Source: Candidatus Woesearchaeota archaeon
Lineage (GTDB): Archaea; Nanobdellota; Nanobdellia; Woesearchaeales; ARS49
NCBI GenBank assembly: GCA_016215315.1
Contig: JACRKG010000045.1
Location: 19,204 to 83,203 of the forward strand
DNA length: 64,000 nt
Direction of reading: 5' to 3'
Below are positions 1 to 48,497 of this stretch, piece by piece; position 1 is the stretch's first letter; each line of letters opens with the position of its first letter. The notes beneath the pieces were generated by a model. It ran no database searches and was not told the DNA's origin. It saw nothing but the letters and a program-made list of their open reading frames with translations. The position numbers were made by a program, and so were the translations under genes.

Positions 1-1223
1 GAGGCAATTGCGTTTTATTTGGAATGACTGGCGATGACAGAAGTGCTGAAAAAATAATCAAACTTGCAAAAAAACAAAAAATCAGTCTTTACTTAATAAA
101 AGACAAAAATGTTCCAACAATAAAAAAAACAAGAGCAATAGCACAAAATCAGCATTTATTAAGATTAGATTTTGAAGAGAAATACGAACCAAACCAAGTA
201 TTTCTGGACGCACTAAAAGAATTATTGGTGCAACAAAACTTTGACGCAATACTGGTTTCTGATTACGCAAAAGGAACAATAACAAAAGAAGTAATGGAAA
301 TACTCAAACAAGCAAACAAACCAATATTTGTAGACCCCAAACCTGCAAATAAAGAATTTTACGAAGGAGTTTTTTTAATTACTCCAAACTTAAAAGAAGC
401 AAAAGAATTAGCCAAAATTAAAGAACAAGAAACTGAAAAGTCTTCTGAAGAATTTTTAGGAAAACACTTATGCGAACTTTACAGCTCTAACATTCTAATA
501 ACAAAAAGTGAAAAAGGAATGACTTTGCACGAAAAAAACAAAGAAGCATTTAACATACCAACTCAAGCGAAAGAAGTTTATGACGTAACAGGAGCAGGAG
601 ACACAGTAATATCAACACTAACACTGGCGTATTCTTGTTGCGCTGATTTGAAAACTTCAGCATTGCTATCAAACATCGCTGCAGGAATATCGGTGGGAAA
701 AATAGGAACATCACCAGTACTAAAAGAAGAATTAATTAATGAATTATTCAGAGATGAAAGCAAAATAAAATCATTAGAAGAACTAAAATTATTAATTAAT
801 GATTTGAAACTAAAAAACAAAAAAATAGTATTTACTAATGGATGTTTTGACATCTTACATACAGGACATACAAGACTTTTAAATTTTGCAAAAAAACAAG
901 GAGACATACTAATATTAGGATTAAACTCAGATGACTCAGTAAAAAGACTAAAAGGAGAAAGCAGACCAATAAATGTTCAAGAAAAAAGAGCAGAAATACT
1001 ATCAAATTTCCCACAAATAAATTACATAACAATATTCGAACAAGACACACCACTAGAATTAGTCGAATCACTAAGACCTGACATAATAGTGAAAGGCGGT
1101 GATTGGAAACCAGAAAACGTAGTAGGAAATCACGTAGCAGAAATAAGAATCTTCAACACAATCGAAGGAGAAAGTACGACAAATATAATAAAGAAAGTGC
1201 AGGAAAAATCTGCTAATAATTGA
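1..1223 (+). CDS. Bifunctional sugar kinase/nucleotidyltransferase (HldE/RfaE-like), probably 5'-truncated by window edge
   Basis: C-terminal cytidylyltransferase-like domain (FTNGCFDILHTGHTRLL...IVKGGDW) after a PfkB-type kinase region; reading frame open to position 1. Confidence 0.65.
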   Translation, partial: GNCVLFGMTGDDRSAEKIIKLAKKQKISLYLIKDKNVPTIKKTRAIAQNQHLLRLDFEEKYEPNQVFLDALKELLVQQNFDAILVSDYAKGTITKEVMEILKQANKPIFVDPKPANKEFYEGVFLITPNLKEAKELAKIKEQETEKSSEEFLGKHLCELYSSNILITKSEKGMTLHEKNKEAFNIPTQAKEVYDVTGAGDTVISTLTLAYSCCADLKTSALLSNIAAGISVGKIGTSPVLKEELINELFRDESKIKSLEELKLLINDLKLKNKKIVFTNGCFDILHTGHTRLLNFAKKQGDILILGLNSDDSVKRLKGESRPINVQEKRAEILSNFPQINYITIFEQDTPLELVESLRPDIIVKGGDWKPENVVGNHVAEIRIFNTIEGESTTNIIKKVQEKSANN

Positions 1224-1621
1224 AAGTTGTCATAACTTTAATTTCTTTTCTGAACCTTTTAGATTTTCCCCTGGTCGCCTGCAAATTAGTTCACGGTTCG
1301 CAGTTTATGGTTTACAGGACGCACTGCAAACTACGAACCATAAACTATGAACCTAAAGGCAGGCGGAACATAGACGCCGCGATAAAATACTGGGTATCTG
1401 AGGTATCATTTGATATCATAGACATTACTGGGTGTCGGGAGAATTGATAACAGAATAGTTTTAAAAGTGCACACTAAAAACTTATCTACTTTTTTATCAA
1501 CTGTTATTGTCGCCAAAACAATTAAAAAACTCAACATGCACATTCAGAAAGGCGACCTGAGCTAAGAAAATTTTCTTGAAATTTAATAAATTCTTTGAGA
1601 ATTTTAATATTATGGAGATTT

Positions 1622-4221: not shown

Positions 4222-4375
4222 AAAATAAGCAGATTATTAAGTTTTATCTAGCTTTGCGAGTTTAAAAAAGTAAGATTTATAAATAAACACGTTTTCCCAC
4301 TGCAAGATGAGGGCCACGTTAGATTTACTTCTAGACATTAACAATATGTCTTAGGTAGATCTATAAAAAAATAGC

Positions 4376-4477
4376 GCTCTGGTAGTCTAGTGGCCTAGGA
4401 TGGAGCCCTGTCGAGGCTCCGACCCGGGTTCGAAATGGTTTAATGAGCTACAAACCAGGAATGTCCCGGCCAGAGCG
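4376..4477 (+). tRNA. tRNA-Asp(GTC) with about 29-nt intervening sequence in the T-loop (position 59/60-like)
   Basis: Acceptor GCTCTGG/CCAGAGC, anticodon stem GAGCC/GGCTC, loop CTGTCGA, T-stem CCGGG/CCCGG with TTCGAA-[29 nt]-T. Confidence 0.5.
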
Positions 4478-4492
4478 TAAGAAATATGTTGT

Positions 4493-4614
4493 GGGCCGGT
4501 AGCTCAGCCTGGTAGAGCACCTCACTTTTATCCTTCGGGAGGAAATGAGGTGGTCGCGAGTTCAAAACTTCATAACGCAAAAGTGCGTTTTGAGTGAACG
4601 TCTCGTCCGGCCCG
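4493..4614 (+). tRNA. tRNA-Lys(TTT) with two introns (14 nt at 37/38, about 34 nt in T-loop)
   Basis: Acceptor GGGCCGG/CCGGCCC, D-stem GCTC/GAGC, anticodon stem CCTCA/TGAGG enclosing CTTTTA+14 nt+A, T-stem GCGAG/CTCGT with TTCAAA-[34 nt]-T. Confidence 0.45.
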
Positions 4615-4635
4615 TCAACACTTAACAATCATAAA

Positions 4636-4878
4636 ATGACAGAAAAAAAGTTTGAAATCACCCAACATAGGTTAGTACCGAAACACTCAGTACTTTCCGA
4701 AAAAGAAGTAACTACTTTGTTAAAGAATTATTCTCTAAAAGATTTACCTAAAATGCATCTTACAGACCCAATAATAGAAACATTAAAAGCAAAAGAAGGG
4801 GATATAATAAGAATTGAAAGAAACAGTTTAACTGCAGGAAAAAGCGTTTTTTACAGGAGGGTTATTGCAAATGCTTGA
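4636..4878 (+). CDS. rpoH: DNA-directed RNA polymerase subunit H (Rpb5 homologue)
   Basis: HRLVPKHSVLSEKEV..LPKM..DPI....GDIIRIERNS.TAG...YRRVI; start moved to ATG 4636 because the 4594 ORF start overlaps the tRNA. Confidence 0.85.
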   Translation: MTEKKFEITQHRLVPKHSVLSEKEVTTLLKNYSLKDLPKMHLTDPIIETLKAKEGDIIRIERNSLTAGKSVFYRRVIANA

Positions 4879-6352: not shown

Positions 6353-6356
6353 AAAA

Positions 6357-8159
6357 ATGACAGAAGTATACTTAGACGGAAGATATGTAGGCGATGTAGA
6401 CAATAAAGAAGACTTTGTTGAACACATAAAAGCAGAAAGAAGAAAAGGCGGAGCAGCAGAAGGAATTAATGTTCAATTAGACAAAATTTTAGACAGAGTA
6501 AACGTTTGCGCATCAAAAGGAAGAGCAAGAAGACCAGTAATTGTAGTAAAAAACGGCATTCCATTACTAACAGAAAAACACATAAAACAATTACACAAAA
6601 ACGAAATTTCCTGGCAAGACTTAGTAAACCAAGGAATAATAGAATACTTGGATGCAGCAGAAGAAGAAAATTCATTACTCGCATTCTATGAACAAGAATT
6701 AACACCAGAACACACACACTTAGAAGTAAGCCCACTAGTAATGTTAGGACTAATCGCATCACTAGTACCTTACGGAAACTTCACACAATCTGCAAGATTA
6801 AGCATTGGATCAAAAAACCAAAAACAAAGCATAGGAGTCTACGCTTCAAACTACTTAGTAAGAATGGACATGGACGTAAACTTACTACACACACCACACA
6901 AACCAATAATTAAAACAATAATTCACGATTTATCAAATTACGAAAGACATCCAGCAGGACAAAACGTAGTTGTAGCAGTAATGAGCTACAAAGGATACAA
7001 CATGGAAGACGCAATCCTAGTAAATAAAGGAAGCATAGAAAGAGGATTCGCAAGATCAAGCTATTACAGACCAGCAATCGCAGAAGAACTACGTTATTCA
7101 GGAGGACTAATGGATCAAGTATGCCCTCCAGACAAAGACGTTAAAGGATACAAAAGCGAAAAAGATTACAGATTCTTAGAAGATGACGGAATAATTTATC
7201 CAGAAGCACAAGTAAAAGAAGACGATGTAGTAATCGGAAAAACAAGCCCTCCAAGATTCTTAAGCTCACTAGACGAATACAGCTTAGCAAGCAACATAAG
7301 AAGAGAAAGCAGCGTAGCACTAAAACACGGAGAAGAAGGAGCAATAGACTTTGTAATGCTAACAGAAAACGAAGAAGGAAACAAACTAGTCCAAGTAAGA
7401 ATAAGAGACCAAAGAATTCCAGAAATAGGAGACAAATTCACATCAAGACACGGACAAAAAGGAGTAATAGGATTAATAGTTCCAGAAAGCGACATGCCAT
7501 TCACATCAAGAGGAATAATCCCAGATATAATGTTCAGCCCTCACGGAATCCCGAGCAGAATGACCGTTTCACAATTAATGGAATTATTAGGAGCAAAAAC
7601 AGGAGCACTAAGCGGACGTTACGTTGACTCAACAACATTCAACGCAGAACCAATGGAAAAAGTAAAACAAGAATTACTAAGCTTAGGATTCCGAGATGAC
7701 GGAGAAGAAATAATGTACAACGGAATCACAGGAGAAAGACTAACAGTAAGAATATTCATAGGAAGCATGTACTACCTAAAACTAAGACACATGGTCGCAA
7801 ACAAAATCCACGCAAGAGCAAGAGGACCAATACAATTACTAACAAGACAACCAACAGAAGGAAGAGCAAAAGAAGGAGGATTAAGATTAGGAGAAATGGA
7901 AAAAGACACCTTCGTAGCTCACGGAACATCATTATTACTAAAAGAAAGATTTGACAGCGACAAAACAATCGTTCCAATCTGCGAAAGCTGCGGAATGGTA
8001 GTAATCCACGACTATGTAAAAGACAAAAGATACTGCCCAGTTTGTGGAGAAAACGTAGACATCAACGACATCGAAATAAGCTACGCATTCAAACTAATGC
8101 TTGACGAATTCAAAACACTAGGATTATATCCAAAACTAACATTAGAAAACAAATATTAA
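6357..8159 (+). CDS. rpoB1: RNA polymerase subunit B' (C-terminal part of split RpoB)
   Basis: GDKF.SRHGQKGV, zinc-ribbon CxxC...CxxC at C-terminus. Confidence 0.9.
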   Translation: MTEVYLDGRYVGDVDNKEDFVEHIKAERRKGGAAEGINVQLDKILDRVNVCASKGRARRPVIVVKNGIPLLTEKHIKQLHKNEISWQDLVNQGIIEYLDAAEEENSLLAFYEQELTPEHTHLEVSPLVMLGLIASLVPYGNFTQSARLSIGSKNQKQSIGVYASNYLVRMDMDVNLLHTPHKPIIKTIIHDLSNYERHPAGQNVVVAVMSYKGYNMEDAILVNKGSIERGFARSSYYRPAIAEELRYSGGLMDQVCPPDKDVKGYKSEKDYRFLEDDGIIYPEAQVKEDDVVIGKTSPPRFLSSLDEYSLASNIRRESSVALKHGEEGAIDFVMLTENEEGNKLVQVRIRDQRIPEIGDKFTSRHGQKGVIGLIVPESDMPFTSRGIIPDIMFSPHGIPSRMTVSQLMELLGAKTGALSGRYVDSTTFNAEPMEKVKQELLSLGFRDDGEEIMYNGITGERLTVRIFIGSMYYLKLRHMVANKIHARARGPIQLLTRQPTEGRAKEGGLRLGEMEKDTFVAHGTSLLLKERFDSDKTIVPICESCGMVVIHDYVKDKRYCPVCGENVDINDIEISYAFKLMLDEFKTLGLYPKLTLENKY

Positions 8160-8192
8160 ACAAAATAATAAATAAAATACTAAAAAAATAAA

Positions 8193-10892
8193 ATGGCAAA
8201 AAAAGAAGAAATCACGGAAGAAGTAAAAGAAAAAACTGAAGAACTAAAAGAAAAAGAAGACGAAGTTCTAACTCCTGAAGAAAAAAACATACTTAAAGAA
8301 GCATTAAGCAGAGAAACAATAGAATCAACACAACAATACATAACTAAAAAAGTAAAAGGAGTAGTATTCGGAGTTCTATCACCAAAAATGATTAAGAAAA
8401 TGTCGACTGCTAAAATAGTAACTCCAGAATTATATGACAAAGAAGGATACCCAGTTGACGGCGGATTAATGGATATACGATTAGGAGTAATCGACCCAGG
8501 ACTAAAATGCAAAACTTGCGGATCAAAACTAAAAGAATGTATAGGACACTTCGGATACATAGAATTAGCAAGACCGGTATTCCACATCAAATTTGTAAGA
8601 CACATTTATGACGGCTTAAGATGCACTTGCAGAGAATGCGGCAGAATCTTAATGGCTGAAGACAAAATAAAAAAAACAATAAAAGAATACAAAAGAATAA
8701 AAGAAAAAGAAGGACTAGAAGCACTAAGACGCTTAACAAGATCAACAATCAGTCCACTAAAATCAGTGAGCAAATGTCCTCACTGTAAAGCAAAACAAGA
8801 AAAAATATTTTTAGTAAAACCATTAATGTTCAAAGAAGACGAGAAAAAACTAACATCAATACAAGTAAGAGCAAGACTTGAAAGAATACCTGACGAAGAC
8901 TCAGAAGTTTTAGGACTAAACCCAAAAGTAGTCAGACCAGAATGGACTGTGTTAACAGTACTACCAATACCACCAGTAACAGTAAGACCATCAATAACAC
9001 TAGAAAGCGGAGAAAGAAGCGAAGACGACCTAACACACAAATTAGGCGACATAGTAAGAATCAACCAAAGACTATTCGAAAACATCAACGCAGGAGCACC
9101 AGAAACAATCATAGAAGACCTATGGGACTTATTACAATACCACGTAACAACATTCTTTGACAACAACATACCACAACTACCTCCAGCAAGACACAGAGGA
9201 GGACAACCACTAAAAACAATCACGGAAAGAATCTCAAGCAAAGAAGGAAGAATAAGACACAACCTAGCAGGAAAAAGAACAAACTTCTGCGCAAGAACAG
9301 TAATCAGCCCAGACCCAATGTTAGGAATCAATTACGTAGGAGTGCCATTCATAGTAGCAATGAAAGTTACAGTTCCAGAAGTAGTAAACGAATGGAACAT
9401 GAATTACTTAAAAAAATTCGTCCAAACAGGACCAAAAGAATACCCTGGAGCAAACTACATAGTAAGACCTGACGGAAAAAAGAAAAAAGTAACAGAAGAA
9501 ACAAAAGAAGCAATGTTAGAAGAATTACAACCCGGATACAAAGTAGAAAGACACTTAATGGACGGAGACATAACAATCTTCAACAGACAACCAAGCTTAC
9601 ACAGAATGAGCATGATGTGCCACAAAGTAAAAGTATTACCATACAAAACACTAAGACTAAACCCGGTTGTTTGTGCTCCTTACAACGCAGACTTTGATGG
9701 AGACGAAATGAACTTACACGTCCCACAAACAGAAGAATCAAGAGCAGAAGCAGAAATATTAATGCAAGTACAAACACAAATAGTAAGCCCAGGATACGGA
9801 CTAAGTGTAATAGGATGCTTACAAGATGCAATATCAGGAAACTTTATACTAACAAGAGACTTAACATTAGAAAGAGAAAAAGCAGTAGAACTATTATGCG
9901 CAGTAGGAATAACAGACTTCAAAAAATTACCAAACAAAAAAACAATCACGGGAAAAGAAATATTCAGCATGCTATTACCAGACGACTTAGATTTCCAAGG
10001 AGCAAGCAAAGCAGGAGAACCAGTATTAATCGAAAAAGGAATACTAAAAGAAGGAGTAATGGACCAAAAAACAATCGGCGGAGAAGGAGAAGGACTCTTA
10101 CTAAGATCACTACACAAACAATACGGTCCAGACGCAACAATCGAAATCTTACAAAGAATACTAAGACTAGGAATAGAAGTATTACTACAAAGAGGATTCA
10201 CAGTAAGCTATTCAGAAACAGAATTACCACCAGAAACAGTTGAAGAAATAAACAAAACACTAAACGTAGCAGAAGAAGATGTACAAAAAGTAATCCAATC
10301 ATTCCACGACGGCTCACTAGAAACATTCCCAGGAAGAACACTAAAAGAAACACTAGAAATGAAAATAGTAGAAGTACTAAACAAAGCAAGAAACTTATGC
10401 GGAAGCATAATAAAGAAAACAATAAACAAAAAAACACACATCTCAATGATGGCAGAAAGCGGAGCAAGAGGAAACATACTAAACGTAGTACAAATGAGTG
10501 CCTGTGTAGGACAACAAGTACTTAGCGGTAGAAGAATAGAAAAAGGATTCAGCAAAAGAACACTAGCATGCTTCAAACAAGGAGACTTATCACCTGAAGC
10601 AAGAGGATTCGTAAGAAGCTCATTCAAAAAAGGACTAAACCCAAGAGAATTCTTCTTCCACTCAATCACTGGTAGAGACGGATTAATGGACACAGCACTA
10701 AGAACACCAAAATCAGGATACTTATACAGACGTCTCGCAAACGCAATGCAAGACCTAAAAGTAGAATACGACGGAAGCGTAAGAGATGCAGCTAACAGAA
10801 TAATACAGTTTTCATACGGAGAAGATGGACTAGACGTTTCAAAAACAGAAAGCGGAAAAATAAATATTAAAAAAATAATACAAATGGCTTAA
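8193..10892 (+). CDS. rpoA1: RNA polymerase subunit A'
   Basis: [10 protein letters not shown] catalytic motif, zinc-binding Cys clusters. Confidence 0.95.
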
Positions 10893-10893
10893 A

Positions 10894-12015
10894 ATGGTAC
10901 ACGCAGACTTAAAAGAATACATTGGAAAATTACCTAGTTCAATAATTCAAGAACTAGAAGAAACTTGCCCAGCATCAAAAATGAAGAAAGTAGCAAAACT
11001 AGTTCATGAAGAATTTGAAAACTCAAGAATATCACCTGGAGAAGCAGTAGGACTAATCAGTGCAGAAAGTATTGGAGAACCAGGAACACAAATGACGTTA
11101 AACACATTCCACTTTGCCGGAGTAGCTGAAATGAGCGTCACAAAAGGATTGCCTAGAATAATAGAAATCCTAGACGCAAGAAAAACCATTTCAACACCAA
11201 CAATGGAAATTTACTTACACGCTCCATACAACAAAGGAAAAGACATAAGAGAAATAGCAATGAGAATAAAAGAAACAAACATGGAATCAGTGGCAAAAGA
11301 TTTTGCCATCAATGTTGTCGACTTAAAAATGGAAACAACACTCGACGCAGAAAAACTAGAAAAACTAGAATTAAACTCCAAAAAAGTACAAAAAATATTA
11401 GAAAAAGCACTAGCAAAAGAAGCAAACGTAGAACTAAACGGAGACAAACTAGAAATTTCATTAAAAGGAAAAGAAAAAGACCTAAACCAATTATACAAAT
11501 TAAAAGAAGCAATCAAAGACGTATACGTTTGCGGAATAAAAGGAATAAAACAAGTACTACCCGTAAGAAGAAAAGAAGACTACATAATCATAACAGCAGG
11601 ATCAAACTTAAAAAAAGTATTCGAACTAGACTTTGTTGACTCATCAAGATCAACATCAAACGATATTCACGAAATAAAAAAAATATTAGGAATAGAAGCA
11701 GCAAGACAAGCAATAATTGACGAATTATTACAAGTTGTAGAAACACAAGGATTAAATGTAGACGTAAGACACTTAATGCTTGTCGCAGACACAATGTGCA
11801 TATCGGGAGACATAAAAGGAATAACAAGATACGGAGTAGTCAGTGAAAAAGCAAGTGTTCTAGCAAGAGCAAGCTTTGAAACACCAATAAAACACTTAAT
11901 AGAAGCATCAGTAATAGGGGAAATAGATTACTTAAACTCAGTAGTAGAAAACGTAATGCTAAACCAACCAGTACCATTAGGAACAGGAATGGTAAAATTA
12001 GTATCAAAAAAATAA
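10894..12015 (+). CDS. rpoA2: RNA polymerase subunit A''
   Basis: Rpb1 C-terminal region homologue, follows rpoA' with 1-nt gap. Confidence 0.9.
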
Positions 12016-12033
12016 ATACTTAAAAAAACAAAA

Positions 12034-12306
12034 ATGGCACAAACAACAGGACCGGAACTAAAAAAATTATCAGAAACAAAAAAACTAGTATTAGGCACAG
12101 AAAGAAACTTAAAACTAATCAAAAAAGGTTCAGAACTAAAAAAAGTAATAATCGCAAAAAACTGCAATCCACAAACAGTAAAATTAATAGAAAAATATTC
12201 TAAAATTCGCGGCCTAGAATTAGAAGTTTCGACGCTAACAAACGAAAAATTAGGAACTTTATGTAAAAAGCCATTCTTAGTCTCAGTTATTGGCATTACC
12301 CAGTGA
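12034..12306 (+). CDS. rpl30e: Ribosomal protein L30e
   Basis: Sequence and operon position typical of L30e. Confidence 0.85.
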   Translation: MAQTTGPELKKLSETKKLVLGTERNLKLIKKGSELKKVIIAKNCNPQTVKLIEKYSKIRGLELEVSTLTNEKLGTLCKKPFLVSVIGITQ

Positions 12307-12749
12307 ATTCTATGGTCAAGTATGATACTGAAGCAATTCAATTTATGAACTTCTTTGAGACATCAACTAAAGCTAAACTAAAAGACTGTTTCGAGTGGAA
12401 CACATTCCAAGTTTTTGTAGTAGAACAAGGAGAAATAGGAAAAGCAATAGGCAAAGGAGGACAAACAGTACTCCAACTACAAAAAAAACTAAAAAAGAAA
12501 ATAAAAATAGTAGAATACAGCCCAGAATTGAAAACATTTATAAATAATCTCGTATCCCCTTTGAAGTTAAAGAGCATAGAAGAGACAGAAAGCATCGTCA
12601 CATTAATACCCCAAGACAATCAAACAAGAGGTGTGTTAATCGGAAGAAACGCAATCTCTCTACGCGCGCTCGAACAAATAATTCAACGATATTTTAAAAT
12701 AAAAGAAGTAAAAATAGGAAAACCATGGGAAATAAATCAAGCGGACTAA
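12303..12749 (+). CDS. nusA: Archaeal NusA-like transcription factor (KH domains)
   Basis: Two KH motifs ([11 protein letters not shown] ; [15 protein letters not shown]), operon position. Confidence 0.8.
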
Positions 12750-13162
12750 ACGCAGGAAAAGCACTAAAAAGAAGAAGACACGTAAGCAAATTACTAAAAA
12801 AAGATTTTGTTAGAAGACTCTTCGAACTAAAAAGAAAAGCAGACCCACTAAGAGGATCATCACAAGCTAAAGGACTAGTTCTAGAAAAAATAGAATTAGA
12901 AGCAAAACAACCAAACAGCGCAAAAAGAAAATGCTGCAGAGTACAATTAATAAAAAACAACAAACAAATCACTGCATTCATGCCAGGCGATGGTGCACAA
13001 AAATTAATTGACGAACACGACGAAGTAATAGTAGAATGCATCGGCGGTCCAATGGGAAAAAGCAAAGGAGACATCCCAGGAGTAAGATGGCAAGTAATCA
13101 AAGTTAACGATCAAAGCTTACGAGACTTAAGAAGCGGAAAATTGGAGAAAGCAAGGAAATGA
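12725..13162 (+). CDS. rps12: Ribosomal protein S12 (uS12)
   Basis: [14 protein letters not shown]...TAFMPGDG motif. Confidence 0.9.
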
Positions 13163-13758
13163 GCGAAGTATTAGTATTCAACAAATGGAGTGCTCAAGGA
13201 GCAAAAGTAGTAGATCCGGGATTAATAGATTACATAAGTGTAAAACCAGTCTACGTACCAAAAACCGCAACAAGATATGCAGGCCACAGATTCAGAAAAT
13301 CAAAACTATTCATAGTAGAAAGATTAATCAACAAAGTAATGGTGCCAGGCCACAGAGCAAAAAAACACAGAAAAAGTTCAGGACACCAAACAGGAAAAGC
13401 AGTAAAGGCATACCAAATAGTAGAAAAAGCACTAATACTAATCGAACAAAGACTAAAAAAAAATCCAATAGAAGTAGTAGTTAAAGCAGTAGAAAACGGA
13501 GCACCAAGAGAAGAAATAGTAACAATAGAATACGGTGGAGCAAGATATCCAAAAGCAGTAGAATGCGCACCACAAAGAAGAATAGATATAGTACTAAAAT
13601 ACTTCATAAACAGTGCTTACGACAAATCATTCAAAAGCAAAAAAAGCATAGAAGAAAGCTTAGCAGAAGAAATAATTGCAGCATACAGGCTTGATCCAAA
13701 AAGTTTGGCAATTTCTAAAAAAAACGAAATGGAAAGACAAGCAGACGCAAGCAGATAA
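13159..13758 (+). CDS. rps7: Ribosomal protein S7 (uS7)
   Basis: S7 family sequence, operon position. Confidence 0.9.
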
Positions 13759-13800
13759 AACTAGTTCACAGTTTGTGGTCTACAGTTTACAGTAAAAAAG

Positions 13801-14007: not shown

Positions 14008-14064
14008 TTCTTTCTTGAATTTGTTAAAAACTCTATTTTGTTTCTTATCTTACTTAAATTTTCT

Positions 14065-14183
14065 CAGTTTCAGTCGCCACGAAGAGTGTGCCAGTAGAGT
14101 TTCTTAATTATTCTAGCGACAAAGACAGTTGATAAAAAAGTAGAAAGAATTTTTTGAGTGCACGTGAATTACTTTTCAGTTAT
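14065..14183. repeat. Copy A of a repeated non-coding element (agtagagtttcttaat...gcgaca...ataaaaa...ttttgagtgcac...acttttcagttat)
   Basis: Aligns along about 120 nt with 37347-37470; ends in the 37-bp direct repeat 14147-14183. Confidence 0.6.
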
Positions 14184-14185
14184 AC

Positions 14186-14638
14186 TTAATCCTTGAACAA
14201 ATCTCTATATTTATCATCGAATTGGATGTAAATATTCTTTGCGTAGTTTATTTTAAGGTATGATTCCGCACTTGATTTTAATGCGTTGTCTAGTCTTTTA
14301 AAATAACCTTTCATTGTACTAAAAACGCTTAAAGCTTCAGCATAATTTTGACTTTGATTATTTACTTTAAAATCCAAGTTTAATGCAAGCTCTACGTGAT
14401 CTCTTAAACTATGAACTTTTTTGTTCATCGGAATACCTTCTTTTTTAATGACTTCATCAATCGAGTTCATTATCAAACAAAGTTCGCTTATTTCTTTACT
14501 TCCAGTTCCAACTTCTCTAACAATGCGTTTTGTTTCCGCTTTTTCTTTGACCTTTCTAATAGTGGTTTCAGCTTTACTTTTATTCAAAGCATCCATTTTA
14601 GAATTATCCCTTGGCGGAGTAGGACTAGACCATGGCAT
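14186..14638 (-). CDS. Hypothetical protein (150 aa) carried in a cassette flanked by 37-bp direct repeats
   Basis: ORF preceded by conserved leader with GAGGTG Shine-Dalgarno. Confidence 0.55.
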   Translation of the reverse strand: MPWSSPTPPRDNSKMDALNKSKAETTIRKVKEKAETKRIVREVGTGSKEISELCLIMNSIDEVIKKEGIPMNKKVHSLRDHVELALNLDFKVNNQSQNYAEALSVFSTMKGYFKRLDNALKSSAESYLKINYAKNIYIQFDDKYRDLFKD

Positions 14639-14641
14639 TAA

Positions 14642-14687
14642 ACCACCTCAACTCTCTTTAAGGGATTACAGTTAATAAATATTACTG
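14642..14687 (-). promoter_or_regulatory. Conserved promoter/5' leader (TATA-like ATATTTATTAA plus GAGGTG SD), copy 1
   Basis: About 44-nt near-identical copy at 25052-25094 in front of another minus-strand gene. Confidence 0.5.
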
Positions 14688-14790
14688 AATTTTTTGAGTG
14701 CACGTGAATTATTTTTCAGTTATCAATTTCTGCGCAGCAGAGTTAATGTTCCGGTTGAGAATGCAGAACAAAACTCAATAAGCACACAAA
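14687..14790. repeat. Copy C (3' part) of repeated element: T-run, GAGTGCAC box, TTTCTGCGCAGCAGAGTTAATGTTCCG
   Basis: Second copy of 37-bp direct repeat (14687-14723) followed by 28-nt block identical to 20798-20825. Confidence 0.6.
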
Positions 14791-14899
14791 TCAAGTAACC
14801 GGCTAAGAGAAAATTCAACTAAAATTGGCTTTATTTTTTAGAAATATTTATATACTTATAACTTTTTATTACTAATTAATAACTATTGAGGTGGTTTAA

Positions 14900-20760: not shown

Positions 20761-20850
20761 TTTTTTAGTGTGCACTAATTAAATTTAATAATTATAAATT
20801 TCTGCGCAGCAGAGTTAATGTTCCGAACGCTTAGAGCAATAAAACTAAAG
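20761..20850. repeat. Copy D of repeated element (T-run, AGTGTGCAC box, TTTCTGCGCAGCAGAGTTAATGTTCCGAACGC)
   Basis: Same module architecture as 14687-14790 and 37440-37525. Confidence 0.6.
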
Positions 20851-20942
20851 CTGCACAATTAGTATGAGTTCTGTAAGGAGAAAATAAAAAAAGATGACAA
20901 GATTTAAATACTAGTAATTACTTATAATTACTGGTTATAACT

Positions 20943-21143
20943 ATGAATATCCAGATAAGCATTCACGCCAAAGAAAAAATGGATAAAGAAGGGATTGACG
21001 AAGAACAGATTAAAACTGCAATAACTAGAGGGTCTGTTTCGAGGCAAACTGATGGTTATCTTGCTTCATACACATATTTTAGTGTAGCTTATCAAAAGAA
21101 AGGAGAAATTTACAGAATAAAAACAGTATATTTGAATAAATAA
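20943..21143 (+). CDS. DUF4258-like toxin-family small protein
   Basis: IHAKEKMDKEGIDEEQIKTAI motif resembles DUF4258 (HAxxRMxERGI). Confidence 0.45.
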   Translation: MNIQISIHAKEKMDKEGIDEEQIKTAITRGSVSRQTDGYLASYTYFSVAYQKKGEIYRIKTVYLNK

Positions 21144-21144
21144 G

Positions 21145-21489
21145 GTGGAAAATATGGAAAATGAAAGTACTTGTTGGGATTGTGGGAAGAAAATGATTAA
21201 GAAAAATGTAGAGTACTCTTTGTATGGTATATTAATTGGCAAATTTCCTGCCTTGGTTTGTGATAATTGCAAAGAAACTTTATTTAGTGAAGAAACATCC
21301 AAGAAAATCACTCAACTAGTTAAAGAAAAAGGCTTGTGGGGTTTGCAGGCTAAAACAAAGGTAGGTCAGGCTGGCAAAACTTTAGATATAAGACTGCCTA
21401 AGAAAATAATAGATTTTGTAAAATTCAAAAAAGGCACAGAAGTGACTATCACTCCTGAAAGCCAAAATAAAATAGTAATAACTGTTTAG
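21145..21489 (+). CDS. Zinc-ribbon (YgiT/MqsA-type) plus SpoVT/AbrB-like antitoxin-type DNA-binding protein
   Basis: CWDCG...CDNC zinc ribbon; C-terminal LDIRLPKKIIDFVKFKKGTEVTI swapped-hairpin-like motif; 1-nt spacing to upstream gene. Confidence 0.5.
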   Translation: MENMENESTCWDCGKKMIKKNVEYSLYGILIGKFPALVCDNCKETLFSEETSKKITQLVKEKGLWGLQAKTKVGQAGKTLDIRLPKKIIDFVKFKKGTEVTITPESQNKIVITV

Positions 21490-25094: not shown

Positions 25095-25191
25095 AAAAAA
25101 GTTTGCAGTTTGTAGTTTACAACCTGCAGTAGGGGAAATTCATTTAGAACCATTGCACTGTAAACTGTGAACTGTAAACTGCCAACCAGTG

Positions 25192-27778: not shown

Positions 27779-27813
27779 AAAGTTTGTAGTTTGGTGTTTA
27801 TGGTTTACGGGAA

Positions 27814-28245
27814 TTATTCTCCTTTTTTCTTCACAACGCTAACAAAACAACTAGGTACTTTTCCCATTTTGTCTTCTGAAAAAAGATCACACATTCTTGC
27901 TCCTGAACCATTAGGTATATTTGTGGGAAATTTAACTATGTCACCTACTTCAATTTGGTCTTCTAAAGCTAGTAACGGTTTCGCAATTCGAGTATCTTCT
28001 ATCATTTCTTCATATATGCTGAAAGTATAAATTCCTTGTTCTGTTTCAACTTTTAATGCATAACTCATCTCGCTGATACTTATTGGTTCTTTTCTAAAAA
28101 TTGAGTTAGGATCATGATTCAAAAGAGGCACAGAGCCTAGTTCTTTAACAACTTTTCCTTGCAAATAATTTGTTGGTCTAGAATAACATCCTCCAAATAA
28201 AATGGTTAATGCAGCGATACTTAGCACTTTGTTTAAAGTTCTCAT
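27814..28245 (-). CDS. Lipoprotein, paralog 1
   Basis: Signal peptide plus Cys (LFGGCYS); conserved LQGKVVKELGSVPLL ... VPSCFVSVVKKKGE. Confidence 0.5.
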   Translation of the reverse strand: MRTLNKVLSIAALTILFGGCYSRPTNYLQGKVVKELGSVPLLNHDPNSIFRKEPISISEMSYALKVETEQGIYTFSIYEEMIEDTRIAKPLLALEDQIEVGDIVKFPTNIPNGSGARMCDLFSEDKMGKVPSCFVSVVKKKGE

Positions 28246-28248
28246 TTT

Positions 28249-28692
28249 TTATTCTCCTTTCTTCTTCACAACGCTGACATAACTGCTAGGAACGTTGCCT
28301 GTTTTATCGTCTTGAAAATATATGGTTGTATCCCCATTCATCACAGATACATCTCCCAGAGCAAATCTAACAGTATCTCCTTCTTCAATTTGTTCTTCCA
28401 AAACAAGTAGAGATTTAGGAGTTATTATATTTCCTGCAATATCACGAAATTTTTTATCTTCATAAACCGCAAAAGAATAAACGCCTTGATCTGTTTCAAC
28501 TTTCAGACCATAACTTAATTCTCCTATGTTTGTTCCTCCATCTTTAAAAATTGATCTTACTTTTAACAGAGGGGCAGAACCTAATTCTTTAACAACGCGT
28601 CCTTCTAAATATTCTGTAGGTCCTAGTTTTTGGGGGCAACCACTCAATGAAATTGCCAAACTAACAATGCCTAACAATTTTTTAACATTCAT
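28249..28692 (-). CDS. Lipoprotein, paralog 2
   Basis: LSGCPQK lipobox-like; LEGRVVKELGSAPLL ... VPSSYVSVVKKKGE. Confidence 0.5.
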   Translation of the reverse strand: MNVKKLLGIVSLAISLSGCPQKLGPTEYLEGRVVKELGSAPLLKVRSIFKDGGTNIGELSYGLKVETDQGVYSFAVYEDKKFRDIAGNIITPKSLLVLEEQIEEGDTVRFALGDVSVMNGDTTIYFQDDKTGNVPSSYVSVVKKKGE

Positions 28693-33710: not shown

Positions 33711-34049
33711 TTGTGGCATTCTCCATTAATGTTTGGTAATGCTTGGGCAAGATTATCTGGAATGGATAAAAAAATAAAAAAAGTAAGCAAGAGTAGTATG
33801 AATTTAGCTTACGGCGGAACTTTGGTAACAACCTTATTGACTGCTTTTGTGCTCTCTTTGTTTTTAGAAAAAATAACCTTGTTCGGTGAAGGTCTTTTCC
33901 TTGCATTCGCAATTTGGTTTGGTTTTTATGCAACTTCTCAATTAGGAATGGTTTTATGGGAACAAAAATCCTTCAAACTGTTTTTAATAAACAGCGGGCA
34001 TAGCTTAGTTGCGTTATTAGTTATGGCTGCAGTAATAATTGCAGTATAA
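33711..34049 (+). CDS. Small membrane protein
   Basis: 3 hydrophobic helices. Confidence 0.4.
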   Translation: MWHSPLMFGNAWARLSGMDKKIKKVSKSSMNLAYGGTLVTTLLTAFVLSLFLEKITLFGEGLFLAFAIWFGFYATSQLGMVLWEQKSFKLFLINSGHSLVALLVMAAVIIAV

Positions 34050-34118
34050 ACTATAAACTCCAAACTATAAACCAAGAACATAAATTTATTTAAACTCTTA
34101 TTTTAGAAGTAATTCTAA

Positions 34119-36886: not shown

Positions 36887-37249
36887 TTAATTCTTAATCC
36901 CTTCAATCGGATTTGTATGCTTACCTTTTATTTTATCAACAGAATAACGCTTTTCATTCTTAACTAGCTTTTCTTCAATTATTTTTGAAAGATCGACATT
37001 CATTTTGTAACCTAGAATGATTAAGTAAATAAAAATATCAGCCAACTCTTCTTCGATCTTTTTCCTCTTTTCAGGATCAGCATGAACTTTCTCAACTTCA
37101 GCATTGCTTAACCATCTATAACACTCGCTTAATTCACCAACTTCGCTAACTAGAGCTAACAAAACATCTTTAGGATTATGATATTTATCCCAATCACGCT
37201 CTAGATTGAAATTCTTGATGCGCGTTTTTAATCTTTCAAAGTCAGTCAT
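36887..37249 (-). CDS. MazG-like nucleoside triphosphate pyrophosphohydrolase
   Basis: RDWDKYHNPKDVLLALVSEVGELSE...EEELADIFIYLIIL. Confidence 0.7.
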   Translation of the reverse strand: MTDFERLKTRIKNFNLERDWDKYHNPKDVLLALVSEVGELSECYRWLSNAEVEKVHADPEKRKKIEEELADIFIYLIILGYKMNVDLSKIIEEKLVKNEKRYSVDKIKGKHTNPIEGIKN

Positions 37250-37346
37250 GAAAAATACAAATAATTGATGGTTTATAAGTTTTGTTCAAGAAAAGATTTG
37301 TAGAAGAGAATGTGTTAATTCTCTTGATTCTAGTTTACAAAAAGTT

Positions 37347-37525
37347 CAGTTTACGATTTGAAGTTTGTGTGTGAGTAGAGTTTCTTAATGGGCATGGCGA
37401 CAGCATCATGAGTCTATAAAAAGGTTGAAGAGTTTTGAGAGTGCACTCAAATAACTTTTCGTTTATTATTTTTCAACGCGCTAGCGTTGACAAAGTGTTC
37501 CGACCGCCTAAAAGTATAATTAAAC
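37347..37525. repeat. Copy B (apparently intact) of repeated non-coding element
   Basis: Contains agtagagtttcttaat, gcgaca, ataaaaa, ttttgagagtgcac, hairpin caacgcgctagcgttg, tgttccgaccgcctaaaagtataattaaac. Confidence 0.6.
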
Positions 37526-37619
37526 TTTACAAGCACAAGAAGCGAGCGTGTCGGCTAGGGGAAAATTAAAATCCAGATTAAAATTGAGCAAAGTTATTAA
37601 CAAAATAAAAATAGTAATT

Positions 37620-38155: not shown

Positions 38156-38740
38156 ATGGTATACATAATTCAAGGAAAAATAGCTTTTGAAAAACCTGCA
38201 TTTGATATGACTCTTGCTGACGGAAAAAGCACAATTGATCAAAAAGCAAAAGACTTAAGTGAACAAAATCAATTAGCTCAAAAAGTAATTTCTGAATCTT
38301 TAGAGAACCAATTCAAAAAATCAGGTCTTAGCACAGTTAATGCAACATTTAATCTCTCAGAGCAAAGAGGCTTAGAAATTGCTGAACAGAAATTATTTTT
38401 GCCTAAAGAAGGTTGGGAAGAATACTTAACACAAATGTACTGTTTACACAAAGAATATTCCGATCAAGGCTGGAAAGCAGCTCACGGAGAAATATTGCTT
38501 TACCAAGAAACAAGAATTCCTTCACCATGGATCTATTTGTATGCTAGCGGCAACTTAATAGAACAATTATATGTAGAAGACGGAAGAGTACATAGAAAAC
38601 AGAACAGAAATAAAAAAGAAAATGCCAAAATTGCTGGATTATTCTTTGATTTTGGTTCACATGACTTCAGAAATCCTAAAGGACTGAAAGTTTACGAACA
38701 AAGAAGCACTAAAACAGCAAGAGGATTCTCATTCAAATAA
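38156..38740 (+). CDS. Hypothetical protein, tandem paralog 1
   Basis: Shares LFLPKEGWEEYLTQMY / RIPSPWIYLYASG blocks with next gene. Confidence 0.5.
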   Translation: MVYIIQGKIAFEKPAFDMTLADGKSTIDQKAKDLSEQNQLAQKVISESLENQFKKSGLSTVNATFNLSEQRGLEIAEQKLFLPKEGWEEYLTQMYCLHKEYSDQGWKAAHGEILLYQETRIPSPWIYLYASGNLIEQLYVEDGRVHRKQNRNKKENAKIAGLFFDFGSHDFRNPKGLKVYEQRSTKTARGFSFK

Positions 38741-38741
38741 A

Positions 38742-39212
38742 ATGACTTACTTAATAAAAGGCGAACTTTCTCTTGAAAGCACTTTAGATTCTTGTGATAC
38801 TGAAGAATTAATAATTGAAGAGAAAAAATTATTCATGCCTAAGGAAGGTTGGGAATCATATTTAACAAGAAAATACAGCAACTGGAATAATGAATATACT
38901 GCTATTGGTGGTGAAATAATTATTTGGAAACAAAAAAGAATTCCTCTGCCTTGGCTTTACTGTTACGCGCAGGGAGAAGCAGTAGGATATTTTGTTGCAA
39001 GCGATGGAGTTATTTATCAACCAAGAACAGTTAAATTTGATGGAAAAATAACTACTTTAGGTTTAGCTATTGAGTTAGGTTTTGTTAATTTTCGAAAAAT
39101 CCATTCTGAAAAGAACACCAGAAAACAAACATTTAAAATTGGTTCACAAGAAGTAAATGTGGTGGAATCTAAAGAAGATACAAAAGACAGAAATTTTACA
39201 TTTAAAATTTAA
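38742..39212 (+). CDS. Hypothetical protein, tandem paralog 2
   Basis: LFMPKEGWESYLTRKY / RIPLPWLYCYAQG. Confidence 0.5.
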   Translation: MTYLIKGELSLESTLDSCDTEELIIEEKKLFMPKEGWESYLTRKYSNWNNEYTAIGGEIIIWKQKRIPLPWLYCYAQGEAVGYFVASDGVIYQPRTVKFDGKITTLGLAIELGFVNFRKIHSEKNTRKQTFKIGSQEVNVVESKEDTKDRNFTFKI

Positions 39213-39710: not shown

Positions 39711-39941
39711 TCATTTCTTATCATGCCACTTTTTAATTGATAGATAAACATATCCAACCAAAGAAGAAACCAAAAAGAATATCACAAAACTTGCAATAAA
39801 TCTTCCACCTAAGTAACCTAGTAATTCACTAAAAATCATATTGTTTTCTGGAGGATGTGTTGCTAAACTTAATACTGCCCAAATTAAAGAAACTATTGAA
39901 ATCTTTTTCCAGTACTTTTCATAAAAGTTTTTTATTTTCAT
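39711..39941 (-). CDS. Small membrane protein
   Basis: Two hydrophobic helices; 4-nt overlap with upstream gene. Confidence 0.4.
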   Translation of the reverse strand: MKIKNFYEKYWKKISIVSLIWAVLSLATHPPENNMIFSELLGYLGGRFIASFVIFFLVSSLVGYVYLSIKKWHDKK

Positions 39942-40777
39942 TTCTTTCTTTTTGATGTATTTGCTATCATTTGTTCACCTTTCTTGACTTCAATTTCCAA
40001 CTTTTTAATGTCTTCTTCGGGCGGAAGTTCTTCAGGTTTTATTCCTCTTTTATTTAATAATTTTCTAACATCTGCATTATTTCTCATGTGCTCTTTTGAT
40101 ATGCTTTTTTCTCCTTTCAGATCGTCTTTTTTAATACTAAAATTGGTAATTTCAGTAGCAAGATTTTTAGCAGTGATAGTTATTGTAGGAAGAAAATCTG
40201 CAAGCGGTCTGCTTTGAGGCACGCCAAACTTGTTCTTCATTTGTGCTGTAGTTTTACCTCCAAAAAGAACTTGATCGCCTTTACTTCTTATTCTCGCAAA
40301 ACCATCATCATCAACTCCCCGCTCATAAATTAATTTTGATAATTCAGTTTCTGAGGCGACAAGCTTCTGTCTAGCATTAAGTCTTTCAACAAGTGCGATT
40401 CTTTGTTCTATTAATTCTTGCTTTCTTGTTTGAACTGCAAAATAGCTTTGAGCAAATGCAATTTCTTCTTTTCTCGGATCCCCATTTTGAGCTATAAGAT
40501 AACAAGCGTATCTGGTGAGCATAATATCTTCAATTTCTCTTTTAGCTCCAGATCCGATATCTACCATTTTCTTAACGTCAGGAAAATGGTCATTTGTGCT
40601 GTGTCCTGACTTCTTGCAAGCTATTTTTGCTTTTTCAATAACATGAACAAAGTTCTCCCATTTATCATAACCTAATAGAACCTGTAAATCTCTGGCAAAC
40701 CAAAATTCAACTCCTTCTGCTTCTTGAGCATAGTCTTCAAATGTTTTTTTCAGTTTTTTTATTATCTCTTTTTCCAT
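39938..40777 (-). CDS. DNA-damage-inducible protein D (DinD)-family protein
   Basis: EFWFARDLQVLLGYDKWENF...KKMVDIGSGAKREIEDIMLTRYACYLIAQNGDP matches DinD N-terminal signature. Confidence 0.65.
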   Translation of the reverse strand: MEKEIIKKLKKTFEDYAQEAEGVEFWFARDLQVLLGYDKWENFVHVIEKAKIACKKSGHSTNDHFPDVKKMVDIGSGAKREIEDIMLTRYACYLIAQNGDPRKEEIAFAQSYFAVQTRKQELIEQRIALVERLNARQKLVASETELSKLIYERGVDDDGFARIRSKGDQVLFGGKTTAQMKNKFGVPQSRPLADFLPTITITAKNLATEITNFSIKKDDLKGEKSISKEHMRNNADVRKLLNKRGIKPEELPPEEDIKKLEIEVKKGEQMIANTSKRKK

Positions 40778-41356: not shown

Positions 41357-41830
41357 GAATTCTATCTTTCTTAATCAGTATAAAAATCTAATTGTGCAAA
41401 AAACTTTGTTAGTTACAGGCTTTACTATGAACTCCAAACCACAAACTCCAAACCTTTTCACTGGACACCCTTTTTTTGGGAAATCTTGCAAAAAAATTGA
41501 AAATTTTCCCAAACTTTTGCTAAGAAATTCACTAAGAAAAACTGAATTCATCGTCTAATTTATCAAAAAACCAATACACTGCAAACTACAAGCTGCAAAC
41601 TATAAACTAGAGTTCACTGGACACTGGACATTTACCCGTAGGCTATTTAAACAAACCCTAGAATTAATATTTACTGGCAAGGCAAGAGAGAGTGAATATT
41701 TAAGTGCCCACGCATTTGAATATTCATTCCTTGAAACCTTGTCAGCTACCTTATATAAAAAGGTTTTGGTGAATAATTCAAAAAAGCAAATTTTACTAGC
41801 GTTAGCTCTAAAACACTTGGAGGTGAGAAA

Positions 41831-45168: not shown

Positions 45169-45204
45169 ATTTGATAACAGAAACTAGATTAGTATTATAA
45201 ATTT

Positions 45205-47164: not shown

Positions 47165-47706
47165 TTATAATTAGCCCATGTTTGAGCTTGACCTTTGAAT
47201 TTTTCACTCGCTTCTATTCTGTGTATTACACTTTCATTACAAGGCTTATATTTTTTCTTTACTTCTTAATAAGCGGTGAAAACATGGTCAAACAAACTAA
47301 TGTATTTGAAAAGATTGAACAATTTAAAAATGTTTTGAAGCCTTTAACGGTTGGAAAAACAGATCAAGACATAAAATTAATGCTTTGTCATTGTAAGCAT
47401 TACAATCTCAGTCTAAGAAAAAGCTTAACTACAGAAGAATATGCTTTAAATGATTTTCTTATGAAAAAAGGTTTGAATGCTAAAACTATTTATGAAAATT
47501 TTGTATTCATAGATTATCCTCAAAGCATAAAGAACTTGTTAGCAGAGAGGAAGATTTCCATAAAAGAAGCGCAATCGCGTTTTATGGCAATTAAAAAATT
47601 GGTAAACGTGAGGGATGGTAAAGATTTAATGACTGAAATAAAATCAGTCATAAGGAGGTTAGAATGGTCTGGGCTCAACAAAACTATCACAACACAGGAA
47701 ATTTAA
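47161..47706 (+). CDS. Hypothetical protein (181 aa)
   Basis: ORF overlapping by 4 nt. Confidence 0.45.
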   Translation: MIIISPCLSLTFEFFTRFYSVYYTFITRLIFFLYFLISGENMVKQTNVFEKIEQFKNVLKPLTVGKTDQDIKLMLCHCKHYNLSLRKSLTTEEYALNDFLMKKGLNAKTIYENFVFIDYPQSIKNLLAERKISIKEAQSRFMAIKKLVNVRDGKDLMTEIKSVIRRLEWSGLNKTITTQEI

Positions 47707-48497
47707 GCAAAACTCAAGAAAAAAAGAGAAAAAGAAAAAGATTTCCTAATGTATTTTTCAAGAACGAAATAACTGAATTATTTGACAATATTGAAGATCT
47801 TAAAACGATGATGGCTAGTTTTTTGGCTTTCTTTTGCGCATTAAGAAATAGTGAAGTATGCAAACTAAAATGGCAAGATATAGACTTAGAAAACAAAAGA
47901 TTAAAGGTTGTGGACGGTAAAAACCACAAAGACGGATTTATACCAATAAGTTCTGTATGCATACCAATACTCAGAAAATGGCGGCAAATAAACTCTGAGT
48001 CAGAATATTTTTTGTCGGGGGAAGCAAAAGGGCTGCCGTTCTTAAGCTCGCATGCATTACTGGAGCGCTTTAAAGTTGCATTATCCAGAGCAAATCTTGA
48101 CATTCCAACAGAGAAAAATGCGGGAGGAAATCAACAGCATCAATACAAATTTCATACTTTGAGGCACTCTAGATGCACCCACTTATTGAACAATGGTGTG
48201 CCAATACAAAAAGTTCAGCACTTCATGAGGCACGACAAAATAGAAACAACAATGCATTACACGTGGATCTTAGACACAGAATTAAACAAAATGGTAGAAA
48301 AAGTTGATACTTCGCCAATGAAAATGTATCAAGAAATAATGCCGGAAAACAATCAATTTACTCAAACACAAACAATAGTGCAGCAAGAACACAGCAATCC
48401 AATAGAAATCGCCAAAAGACGCTTAGCATTTGGAGAAATCAGCCCCAGAGAATTTAAAAGAATAGTTGGAGTGCTTCAAACACCGCTAAGTGTCTGA
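47664..48497 (+). CDS. Tyrosine recombinase/integrase (XerC/XerD/phage integrase family)
   Basis: ALRNSE (R), HTLRHS (HxxR), RHDKIETTMHY (R/H...Y) catalytic signature. Confidence 0.75.
   Translation: MVWAQQNYHNTGNLSKTQEKKRKRKRFPNVFFKNEITELFDNIEDLKTMMASFLAFFCALRNSEVCKLKWQDIDLENKRLKVVDGKNHKDGFIPISSVCIPILRKWRQINSESEYFLSGEAKGLPFLSSHALLERFKVALSRANLDIPTEKNAGGNQQHQYKFHTLRHSRCTHLLNNGVPIQKVQHFMRHDKIETTMHYTWILDTELNKMVEKVDTSPMKMYQEIMPENNQFTQTQTIVQQEHSNPIEIAKRRLAFGEISPREFKRIVGVLQTPLSV

Follow-up and report, generated by a model that had tools for sequence, protein, structure and literature searches.

Palindromic intergenic elements with covarying arm helices in a Woesearchaeota archaeon

Introduction

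Foldback-type MITEs are found in both archaea and bacteria, examples being the SM elements of Sulfolobus and the Correia/NEMIS elements of Neisseria. The QUAD and LDR repeats of Escherichia coli were first seen as DNA repeats and were later recognized as the Sib/Ibs and Ldr/Rdl type I toxin–antitoxin loci. DPANN archaea have tiny genomes and very few described noncoding RNAs or mobile elements, and therefore a family that holds a noticeable share of the intergenic DNA in one of them stands out.

Here we consider such a family in a stretch of 64,000 nt from a Candidatus Woesearchaeota archaeon (contig JACRKG010000045.1 of assembly GCA_016215315.1, forward strand), which we refer to as the window. 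An original prediction made from the letters of the window had described noncoding elements with a GTGCAC box and had offered three candidates for them: a small noncoding RNA family, a regulatory module bound by a dimeric factor, or MITE-like elements. The elements prove to be intergenic palindromes of about 250–400 bp that share features with each of the systems named above.

Results

The window is AT-rich (GC ~32%) and archaeal, with an rpoH-rpoB''-rpoB'-rpoA'-rpoA''-L30e-NusA-S12-S7 array that spans positions 4594–13758. Its S7, PfkB/HldE, and small membrane proteins carry the name Candidatus Woesearchaeota archaeon at NCBI. The lineage is rare, with 76% identity to the closest other S7, and the 65-aa small membrane ORF that follows S7 falls in only three clusters among 5.8e9 proteins. 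Noncoding DNA amounts to 6.6 kb, about 1.2 kb of which is taken up by the element family. Two related genomes recur below: L065 (GCA_016213425.1), with an S7 of 76% identity, and L072 (GCA_053530895.1), with a PfkB that is 90% identical.

Two candidate intron-containing tRNA genes were observed at 4375–4480 and 4493–4615. The first is Asp-GUC-like with an insert of ~29 nt in the T-loop; the second is Lys-UUU-like, has both an anticodon-loop intron and a T-loop insert, and overlaps the called GTG start of the rpoH ORF at 4594. Both were missed by ARAGORN and by the Rfam gathering scan, and a relaxed Rfam search returned sub-threshold tRNA matches (E about 0.25). Two tandem paralogous gene pairs (27795–28245 with 28230–28692, and 38156–38740 with 38742–39212) show about 70–77% DNA identity across stretches of 60–100 nt. 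Accessory small genes encoding a PemK-type toxin, a DUF4258 toxin, a MazG-like pyrophosphohydrolase, and a Bro-N protein are grouped near the elements (2645–3010 (-), 20943–21489, 36887–37249 (-), and 39938–40777 (-)). The DUF4258 toxin gene, with a YgiT/MazE-like partner, is directly downstream of copy c2, and the MazG-like gene adjoins copy c3.

Searches with nhmmer placed four element loci in the window (c1–c4, Table 1), with pairwise E values of 1.7e-14 to 3e-5, and found no further copy within it. A fifth full copy, c5 (L071:6770-7005), is located 3.8 kb outside the window, on L071, a Logan contig from the same sample that extends 3.8 kb past the window start; this makes 5 copies in about 68 kb. 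Identity between copies is 55–88%, and the element termini read ATAATATTAAAATT... All the modules that had been described are present, and the exact long matches among them are far above chance: the 16-mer AGTAGAGTTTCTTAAT has exact matches at 14093 and 37374 and a variant with 3 mismatches at 1521–1536 (-), and the 27-mer TTTCTGCGCAGCAGAGTTAATGTTCCG is exact at 14727 and 20799, with 0 expected in shuffles. The motif RTGTTCCG occurs at 14746, 20818, 37495, and 1364–1371 (-), and the window has nine GTGCAC sites, five of them within element loci.

The extents of the copies differ from those first given. The copy placed at 37347–37525 is there but extends beyond both limits, and the pieces at 14065–14183 and 14687–14790 are real but are held apart by a segment that carries an ORF. 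What had been listed as a further GTGCAC box at about 1470 is indeed such a box, but it is part of a full minus-strand copy, the fourth in the window. The suggested bias toward sites upstream of genes did not hold up; the gene pairs that flank the copies are variously convergent, co-directional, or divergent, no consistent position relative to gene starts emerges, and most copies are at gene ends.

Table 1. Positions of the element copies in the window and of their parts
Feature	Position	Strand	Details
c4, whole palindromic element	1210..1620 (core 1240-1590)	-	nhmmer E 6e-64; alignment with L072
c4 right arm	1260..1472	-	P4 CCGCCUGC/GCAGGCG; R1 match, E 5e-4
c4 left arm	1467..1590	+ (strand homologous to right arms)	P2 GUCGCC/GGCGAC; alignment A7; R1 match 1467-1570 (+), E 6.6e-3
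c1 left arm and first center module	14040..14183	+	AGTAGAGTTTCTTAAT, GCGACA, TTGATAAAAAA, T-run, GTGCAC 14158-14163; R1 match 14055-14163 (-), E 9.5e-4
Segment within c1	14184..14668	-	485 nt; carries ORF150, 14186-14638
c1 second center module and right arm	14669..14817	+	GTGCAC 14698-14703; R1 E 9e-13
c1 right-arm P3	14728-14742		
c1 right-arm AUGUUCCG	14746-14753		
c1 right-arm P4	14751-14757 with 14796-14802		
c1 right-arm AAGCACAC	14780-14787		
c1 right-arm tail	14807-14815		GAGAAAAUU
c2, solo right arm	20761..20888	+	T-run; GTGCAC 20770-20775; R1 E 5e-9
c2 P3	20800-20814		
c2 AUGUUCCG	20818-20825		
c2 P4	20823-20828 with 20868-20873		two mismatches
c2 UGCACAA	20852-20858		
c3, the copy first noted	about 37316..37570	+	GTGCAC 37441-37446; R1 E 2e-29
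c3 left arm	about 37340-37446		P2 5' strand mutated
c3 P3	37473-37490		
c3 GUGUUCCG	37495-37502		
c3 P4	37500-37507 with 37546-37554		bulged U included
c3 AAGCACAA	37531-37538		
c3 tail	37558-37567		

Independent Logan contigs stop inside elements. Contig SRR12113407_379145 (L064) stops at window position ~37490, the 3' end of c3 P3, with its other end within a unique gene, and L073, from a 91% relative, terminates in the c5 and c4 copies, one at each end. Contig ends inside elements fit assembly breaks induced by repeats or palindromes.

The GTGCAC box is the symmetry center of a large imperfect palindrome formed by two homologous, mutually inverted arms of ~115 nt. Covariance model R1, constructed from the 3' domains (right arms) of c3, c5, and the c5 ortholog only, recovers every 3' domain and, on the opposite strand, also finds the left arms of c1, of c4, and of the copy in L072 (E values among the three of 9.5e-4, 2.3e-3, and 6.6e-3). 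In alignment A7, which holds 7 right and 5 left arms, the GCACA and A-rich loop columns are invariant, and inverted repeats of 16–19 nt connect both arms. These three observations identify the 5' module of the original prediction as the reverse-complement homologue of its 3' module: reverse complementing AGTAGAGTTTCTTAAT gives the loop motif AAGAAACUCUACU, and GCGACA supplies the 3' strand of the helix in the left arm.

Each arm has a helix, called P4 in the right arm and P2 in the left arm, that closes a loop of ~38 nt with AAUAAAACUC and GCACA. Both arms terminate in (G)AGAAAAU(U), and an extra hairpin, P3, is found in the right arm only. The AT-rich center runs in the order TTGATAA, about 23 nt, GTGCAC, about 19 nt, TTATCAA, such that the TTGATAA and TTATCAA boxes are symmetric at about 20–25 nt from GTGCAC. 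The extension of the center palindrome varies by copy, as seen with GAGTGCACTC in c3 and TCAAGTGCACTTGA in L072. For the right arm, a TATA-like ATAAAAA lies 24–26 nt upstream of GTGCAC and is noncanonical compared with the tRNA-Gln promoter TTTATAAT.

The right arm conserves the single-stranded motifs UGUUCCG, AAUAAAACU, AAGCACA, and GAGAAAAU, and its P3 and P4 helices are backed by compensatory changes. P3 occurs as UUCUGC/GCAGAG, UCAACGC/GCGUUGA, CCCGC/GCGGG, and CAGCUC/GAGCUG. The palindromic box CTGCGCAG that had been proposed as a feature of the elements is present, but it is one version of this covarying hairpin. P4 occurs in six sequence versions in the pair table: CCGGUU(G)/(U)AACCGG, CCGCCCGC/GCGGGCGG, CCGACCGC/GCG-U-GUCGG, CCGCCUGC/GCAGGCGG, CCGAAC/GUUCUG, and CCGCUUGC/GCAAGCGG. 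Among 8 distinct right arms from 4 related genomes, in an alignment fitted to the model, 96.2% of the cells that should pair do so, compared with 80.7% in shuffles (0/500 shuffles reach the observed value), and double changes affect 6 pairs (17 cells). Controls in which the strands were slid pair at only 25–44%. RNAalifold, the structure analysis proposed along with the original prediction, recovered P3 and P4 unprompted.

Folds of single arms are no more stable than those of shuffles (z of −0.5 to +0.5). Whole-element folds have z values of −3.7 and −3.2 because the arms are able to pair with each other. A whole-element foldback is thermodynamically possible, but we reject it as the conserved structure, given that the arms have not stayed complementary to each other in c1, in the L065 copy, or across the c5 orthologs of the window genome and L072. 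The helices within the arms are kept, and these are therefore the conserved ones. A pseudoknot of 5' GUGUGC with 3' GCACAC was also rejected: its register is not conserved, and the inverted-repeat homology of the arms accounts for the complementarity. The counts of G·U and A·C pairs are too few for strand assignment, and it is possible that the helices act as single-stranded DNA or as a cruciform.

Copy c4 documents gain or loss of a whole unit. In a global alignment it forms a clean block of 411 nt against an empty site in L072; the site is occupied in L073 as well as in the window. The PfkB gene and a convergent 323-aa gene overlap by 7 nt in L072, whereas in the window c4 parts them and provides the last codons, and thus a new C terminus and stop, of the PfkB/HldE gene. 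Comparison of the c4 junctions, AATCTCC and ATTTTTCC, with ACTTCTCC at the empty site gives an imperfect direct repeat of ~8 bp at this sole mapped junction pair. The c4 termini are inverted-repeat-like, a similarity that 38 of 2000 shuffles score as high. Because the only mapped direct repeat is imperfect, it is possible that c4 was instead deleted from L072 via microhomology.

Two secondary insertions are present in the right arm of the window's c4: an enlarged P3 and a hairpin of GTTYRYR heptads (1287–1353) that stands in place of the AAGCACA loop. Since P3 is of normal short length and the AAGCACAC loop is present in the L073 ortholog, both insertions were acquired by the window's c4.

The heptads make up a second repeat family in the window, in which arrays of about four GTTYRYR units (for example, GTTCACA GTTTGTG GTCTACA GTTTACA) directly follow gene ends. 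The arrays lie at 1289–1352, 13764–13791, 25101–25186, 27783–27810, 34049–34079, and 41577–41607. In two instances the arrays are paired in inverted orientation and form a long hairpin, and one of these hairpins is nested within c4. They could be terminators or protein-binding arrays.

The split copy, c1, is flanked at its interruption by directly repeated center modules (37 nt at 97% identity), and the ends of the intervening segment, ACTTAATCCTT and AAGGGATTACAGT, are inverted repeats. The 150-aa ORF150 that it carries is an orphan: among 1.84e9 representative proteins it has just one homolog, which is 91% identical. ORF150 has no match in Pfam, NCBIfam, or PHROGs, and no HUH motif was found in it. 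This arrangement suggests that the segment was captured through recombination at the element center. A Pfam scan of about 40 window ORFs turned up no transposase or other mobilizing gene; the only recombinase among these ORFs is a 277-aa XerA-like protein (47664–48497), 10 kb from the nearest copy.

Orthologous copies reveal where the element is constrained. The corresponding locus of L065, which follows S7 and the homologous 65-aa membrane ORF, contains a diverged copy in which both right-arm helices are fully compensated and the 12-mer AAGCACAAGAAG of the loop is identical to that of c3. Between c5 and its L072 ortholog, the right arm from P3 to P4 is identical at 72/81 positions (0.89, P 1e-5) and the left arm at 0.82 (P 0.007), compared with 0.58–0.74 (about 68%) for four-fold sites of flanking genes between the window genome and L072; the center flanks and the downstream spacer are at 0.57–0.62. 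The arms are thus more conserved than four-fold sites and are therefore selected at the level of the host locus. GTGCAC is invariant between the orthologs, and outside it and CCATAAAAA the center shows neutral-like drift. Constraint is strongest in the arm cores, 60–110 nt from the center, where GC is 0.39–0.46 versus 0.29 in other noncoding DNA. The element is absent from S7-based relatives at about 72% identity (L066 and L067), from the JGI contig L068, and from L074, a relative at 69% PfkB identity.

No known RNA could be assigned to the family. At gathering thresholds, Rfam 15 found only tRNA-Gln in the whole window, with no HEARO match, and searches by E value at the c1, c3, c5, and L065 loci produced chance-level matches only. 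Exact-pattern scans, which diverged relatives would escape, returned 9 chance matches for TTTTKWGWGTGCACN{35,65}RTGTTCCG in GTDB representative genomes (a collection that does not include the window genome), 49 loci for GAGTTTYTTAATNNNNNNRGCGACA in JGI metagenomes, 0 of them homologous by nhmmer, and chance matches only for two patterns in IMG/VR. Literature searches found no related reports. Near the tRNA-Gln gene we observed a separate resemblance: the 19 nt directly upstream of it (CTAGTTTCTGTTATCAAAT; 45170–45190, -) are very similar to a segment of the c4 right arm (CTATTCTGTTATCAATT; 1440–1460, -), and the exact 9-mer TGTTATCAA is found in the window only at these two places.

Several specific identities were tried and rejected. 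A small ORF starting at RTGTTCCG (M-F-R...) gives unconserved frames of 5 to 24 codons, with no start codon in L065. Most copies lack the boxes of an H/ACA RNA (suggested by ACA after the L065 hairpins) and of a C/D RNA (suggested by AUGAUGC...CUGA on either side of P2 in some left arms). The defining features of archaeal origin ORB boxes are absent. An integron attC site would call for RYYYAAC...GTTRRRY cores, of which there are none; the sole recombinase is the distant 277-aa protein, and neighboring genes are in mixed orientation. Finally, an IS200/IS605-derived PATE or a TnpB/IscB guide RNA does not match arms that are inverted, not direct, or neighboring ORFs that have no Y1_Tnp or TnpB domains.

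Discussion

The reading that we favor, with a confidence that is about evenly balanced, is that of a lineage-restricted, MITE-like family of palindromic elements in which the arms are structured modules under selection, probably small RNAs. The family, found in a rare DPANN archaeon, appears to be previously undescribed, with no Rfam match and no copies in the exact-pattern scans. As in MITEs, inverted repeats are present and the units are short, noncoding, and multi-copy, with presence/absence polymorphism and no conserved ORF. As in structured RNAs, secondary structure is conserved with covariation (96% paired, 6 double-change pairs). An identity of 55–88% between copies does not fit a recent transposition burst, and conservation at orthologous loci is not expected of a purely selfish, decaying MITE. 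The MITE-like candidate of the original prediction thus gains from the palindromic two-arm build, the partial and interrupted copies, and the presence/absence with an imperfect direct repeat, and its noncoding RNA candidate gains from the covarying helices, conserved loops, GC above the intergenic background, and above-neutral conservation. These two candidates appear to be two aspects of one thing.

In such a family, the unit would spread as DNA, perhaps through a transposase acting in trans, as the imperfect direct repeat of ~8 bp at one junction suggests, and the arms would be retained for acting as folded single strands. The likeliest form of the arms would be small RNAs of ~100–120 nt, transcribed outward from the center. 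The ATAAAAA box could serve as a putative promoter, along with the symmetric TTGATAA/TTATCAA boxes. This promoter assignment is weakened, however, because the box is noncanonical and most of the center drifts in a neutral-like manner.

The reading that comes closest, though we regard it as unlikely, is that the elements are nonmobile chromosomal small RNA genes: head-to-head paralogs of ~115 nt around a bidirectional GTGCAC promoter, spread by ordinary duplication, with c4 deleted in L072. Helix covariation, conserved loops, raised GC, and purifying selection are all in keeping with an RNA gene, as is the retention of a copy at the same locus across the divergence represented by an S7 of 76% identity. 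The solo arm c2 and the second unit of c1 each retain the TATA-like stretch and GTGCAC upstream. However, ordinary duplication hardly puts whole palindromic units at unrelated gene ends. In addition, c4 breaks the overlap of two convergent genes and swaps the PfkB C terminus, as an insertion would, and the symmetry of the element reaches the insertion termini, past the arms.

A role at the DNA level would make the element either a platform for a dimeric protein at GTGCAC and the GTGC/GCAC motifs that flank it or a bidirectional terminator or insulator between genes, and we hold this to be quite improbable. The palindromic center is extended differently by copy (GAGTGCACTC in c3 and TCAAGTGCACTTGA in L072), T6 runs are found on both strands next to it, most copies are at gene ends, and GTGCAC is invariant between orthologs, all of which such a role would explain. 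A protein site whose bases are read should not, however, tolerate wholesale compensatory replacement of P3 and P4, and the top constraint is in the arm cores, 60–110 nt away from a center that is for the most part neutral-like. Archaeal termination, for its part, requires oligo-T only, not loops of ~38 nt with conserved motifs. The dimeric-factor candidate of the original prediction accordingly leaves the compensatory changes unexplained, although the GTGCAC center could still be bound.

It is very improbable that the center is an att-like or dif-like site of a tyrosine recombinase that captures cassettes such as ORF150, with accessory arms that are loosely attC-like: the ORF150 segment between direct center repeats with a near-identical 37-nt core is a pattern of integrative recombination, the c3 center TTTGAG-AGTGCA-CTCAAA has inverted arms around a 6-bp spacer, and the window holds both a XerA-like recombinase and toxin–antitoxin-like small genes after c2, but there is one split copy only, with no RYYYAAC/GTTRRRY core, adjacent IntI-type integrase, or array of co-oriented cassettes, the recombinase is as large as a housekeeping XerA and is encoded 10 kb away from the closest copy, and the reading leaves unexplained how whole units come to be inserted at new sites.

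Returning to MITE-like elements with selected arms, a bolder form of this reading, which we offer tentatively and think unlikely, is that the arms encode a new class of structured small RNA in DPANN archaea and that the head-to-head pair is mobile as a unit, that is, a mobile noncoding RNA gene. If so, the conserved loops (AAUAAAACU and AAGCACA) could have a trans-acting role, and the RNA might be a guide or partner for a recombinase or nuclease, or a regulator of nearby toxin–antitoxin-like genes. The family has reshaped gene ends, as in the new PfkB/HldE C terminus and stop supplied by c4, and this reshaping, together with purifying selection with compensation, suggests either that a mobile element has been domesticated or that the family is a mobile RNA gene. 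In practical terms, the family offers a marker of strain-level variation and may add to assembly breaks in these MAGs.

Overall, the family combines features of several known systems. It is like foldback MITEs in having short, noncoding, multi-copy, intergenic long inverted repeats, with gain and loss of units between close relatives, a possible short direct repeat at a junction, and partial and nested copies. It is unlike them in that it is not known to share sequence similarity with any described element and no autonomous partner was found; its copies are old and divergent (55–88%), with helix compensation and purifying selection at orthologous loci; and its solo arms persist with helices largely intact. 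Like REP/REPIN (mobilized by RAYT), BOX, and ERIC sequences, the elements are structured extragenic palindromes arranged as inverted doublets, modular or mosaic in build, located at gene ends, and conserved in structure rather than sequence. Unlike REP/REPIN, they have arms of ~115 nt with large conserved loops, not hairpins of 20–40 nt, and an archaeal (DPANN) host; no Y1/RAYT gene was found among the scanned ORFs, and a possible target duplication does not fit HUH-type transposition. In contrast to QUAD/LDR, there is no conserved small ORF, the MFR... frame ranging from 5 to 24 codons and being absent in L065. The family is nonetheless like QUAD/LDR in being an intergenic family of DNA repeats, and QUAD/LDR proved to encode small structured RNAs.
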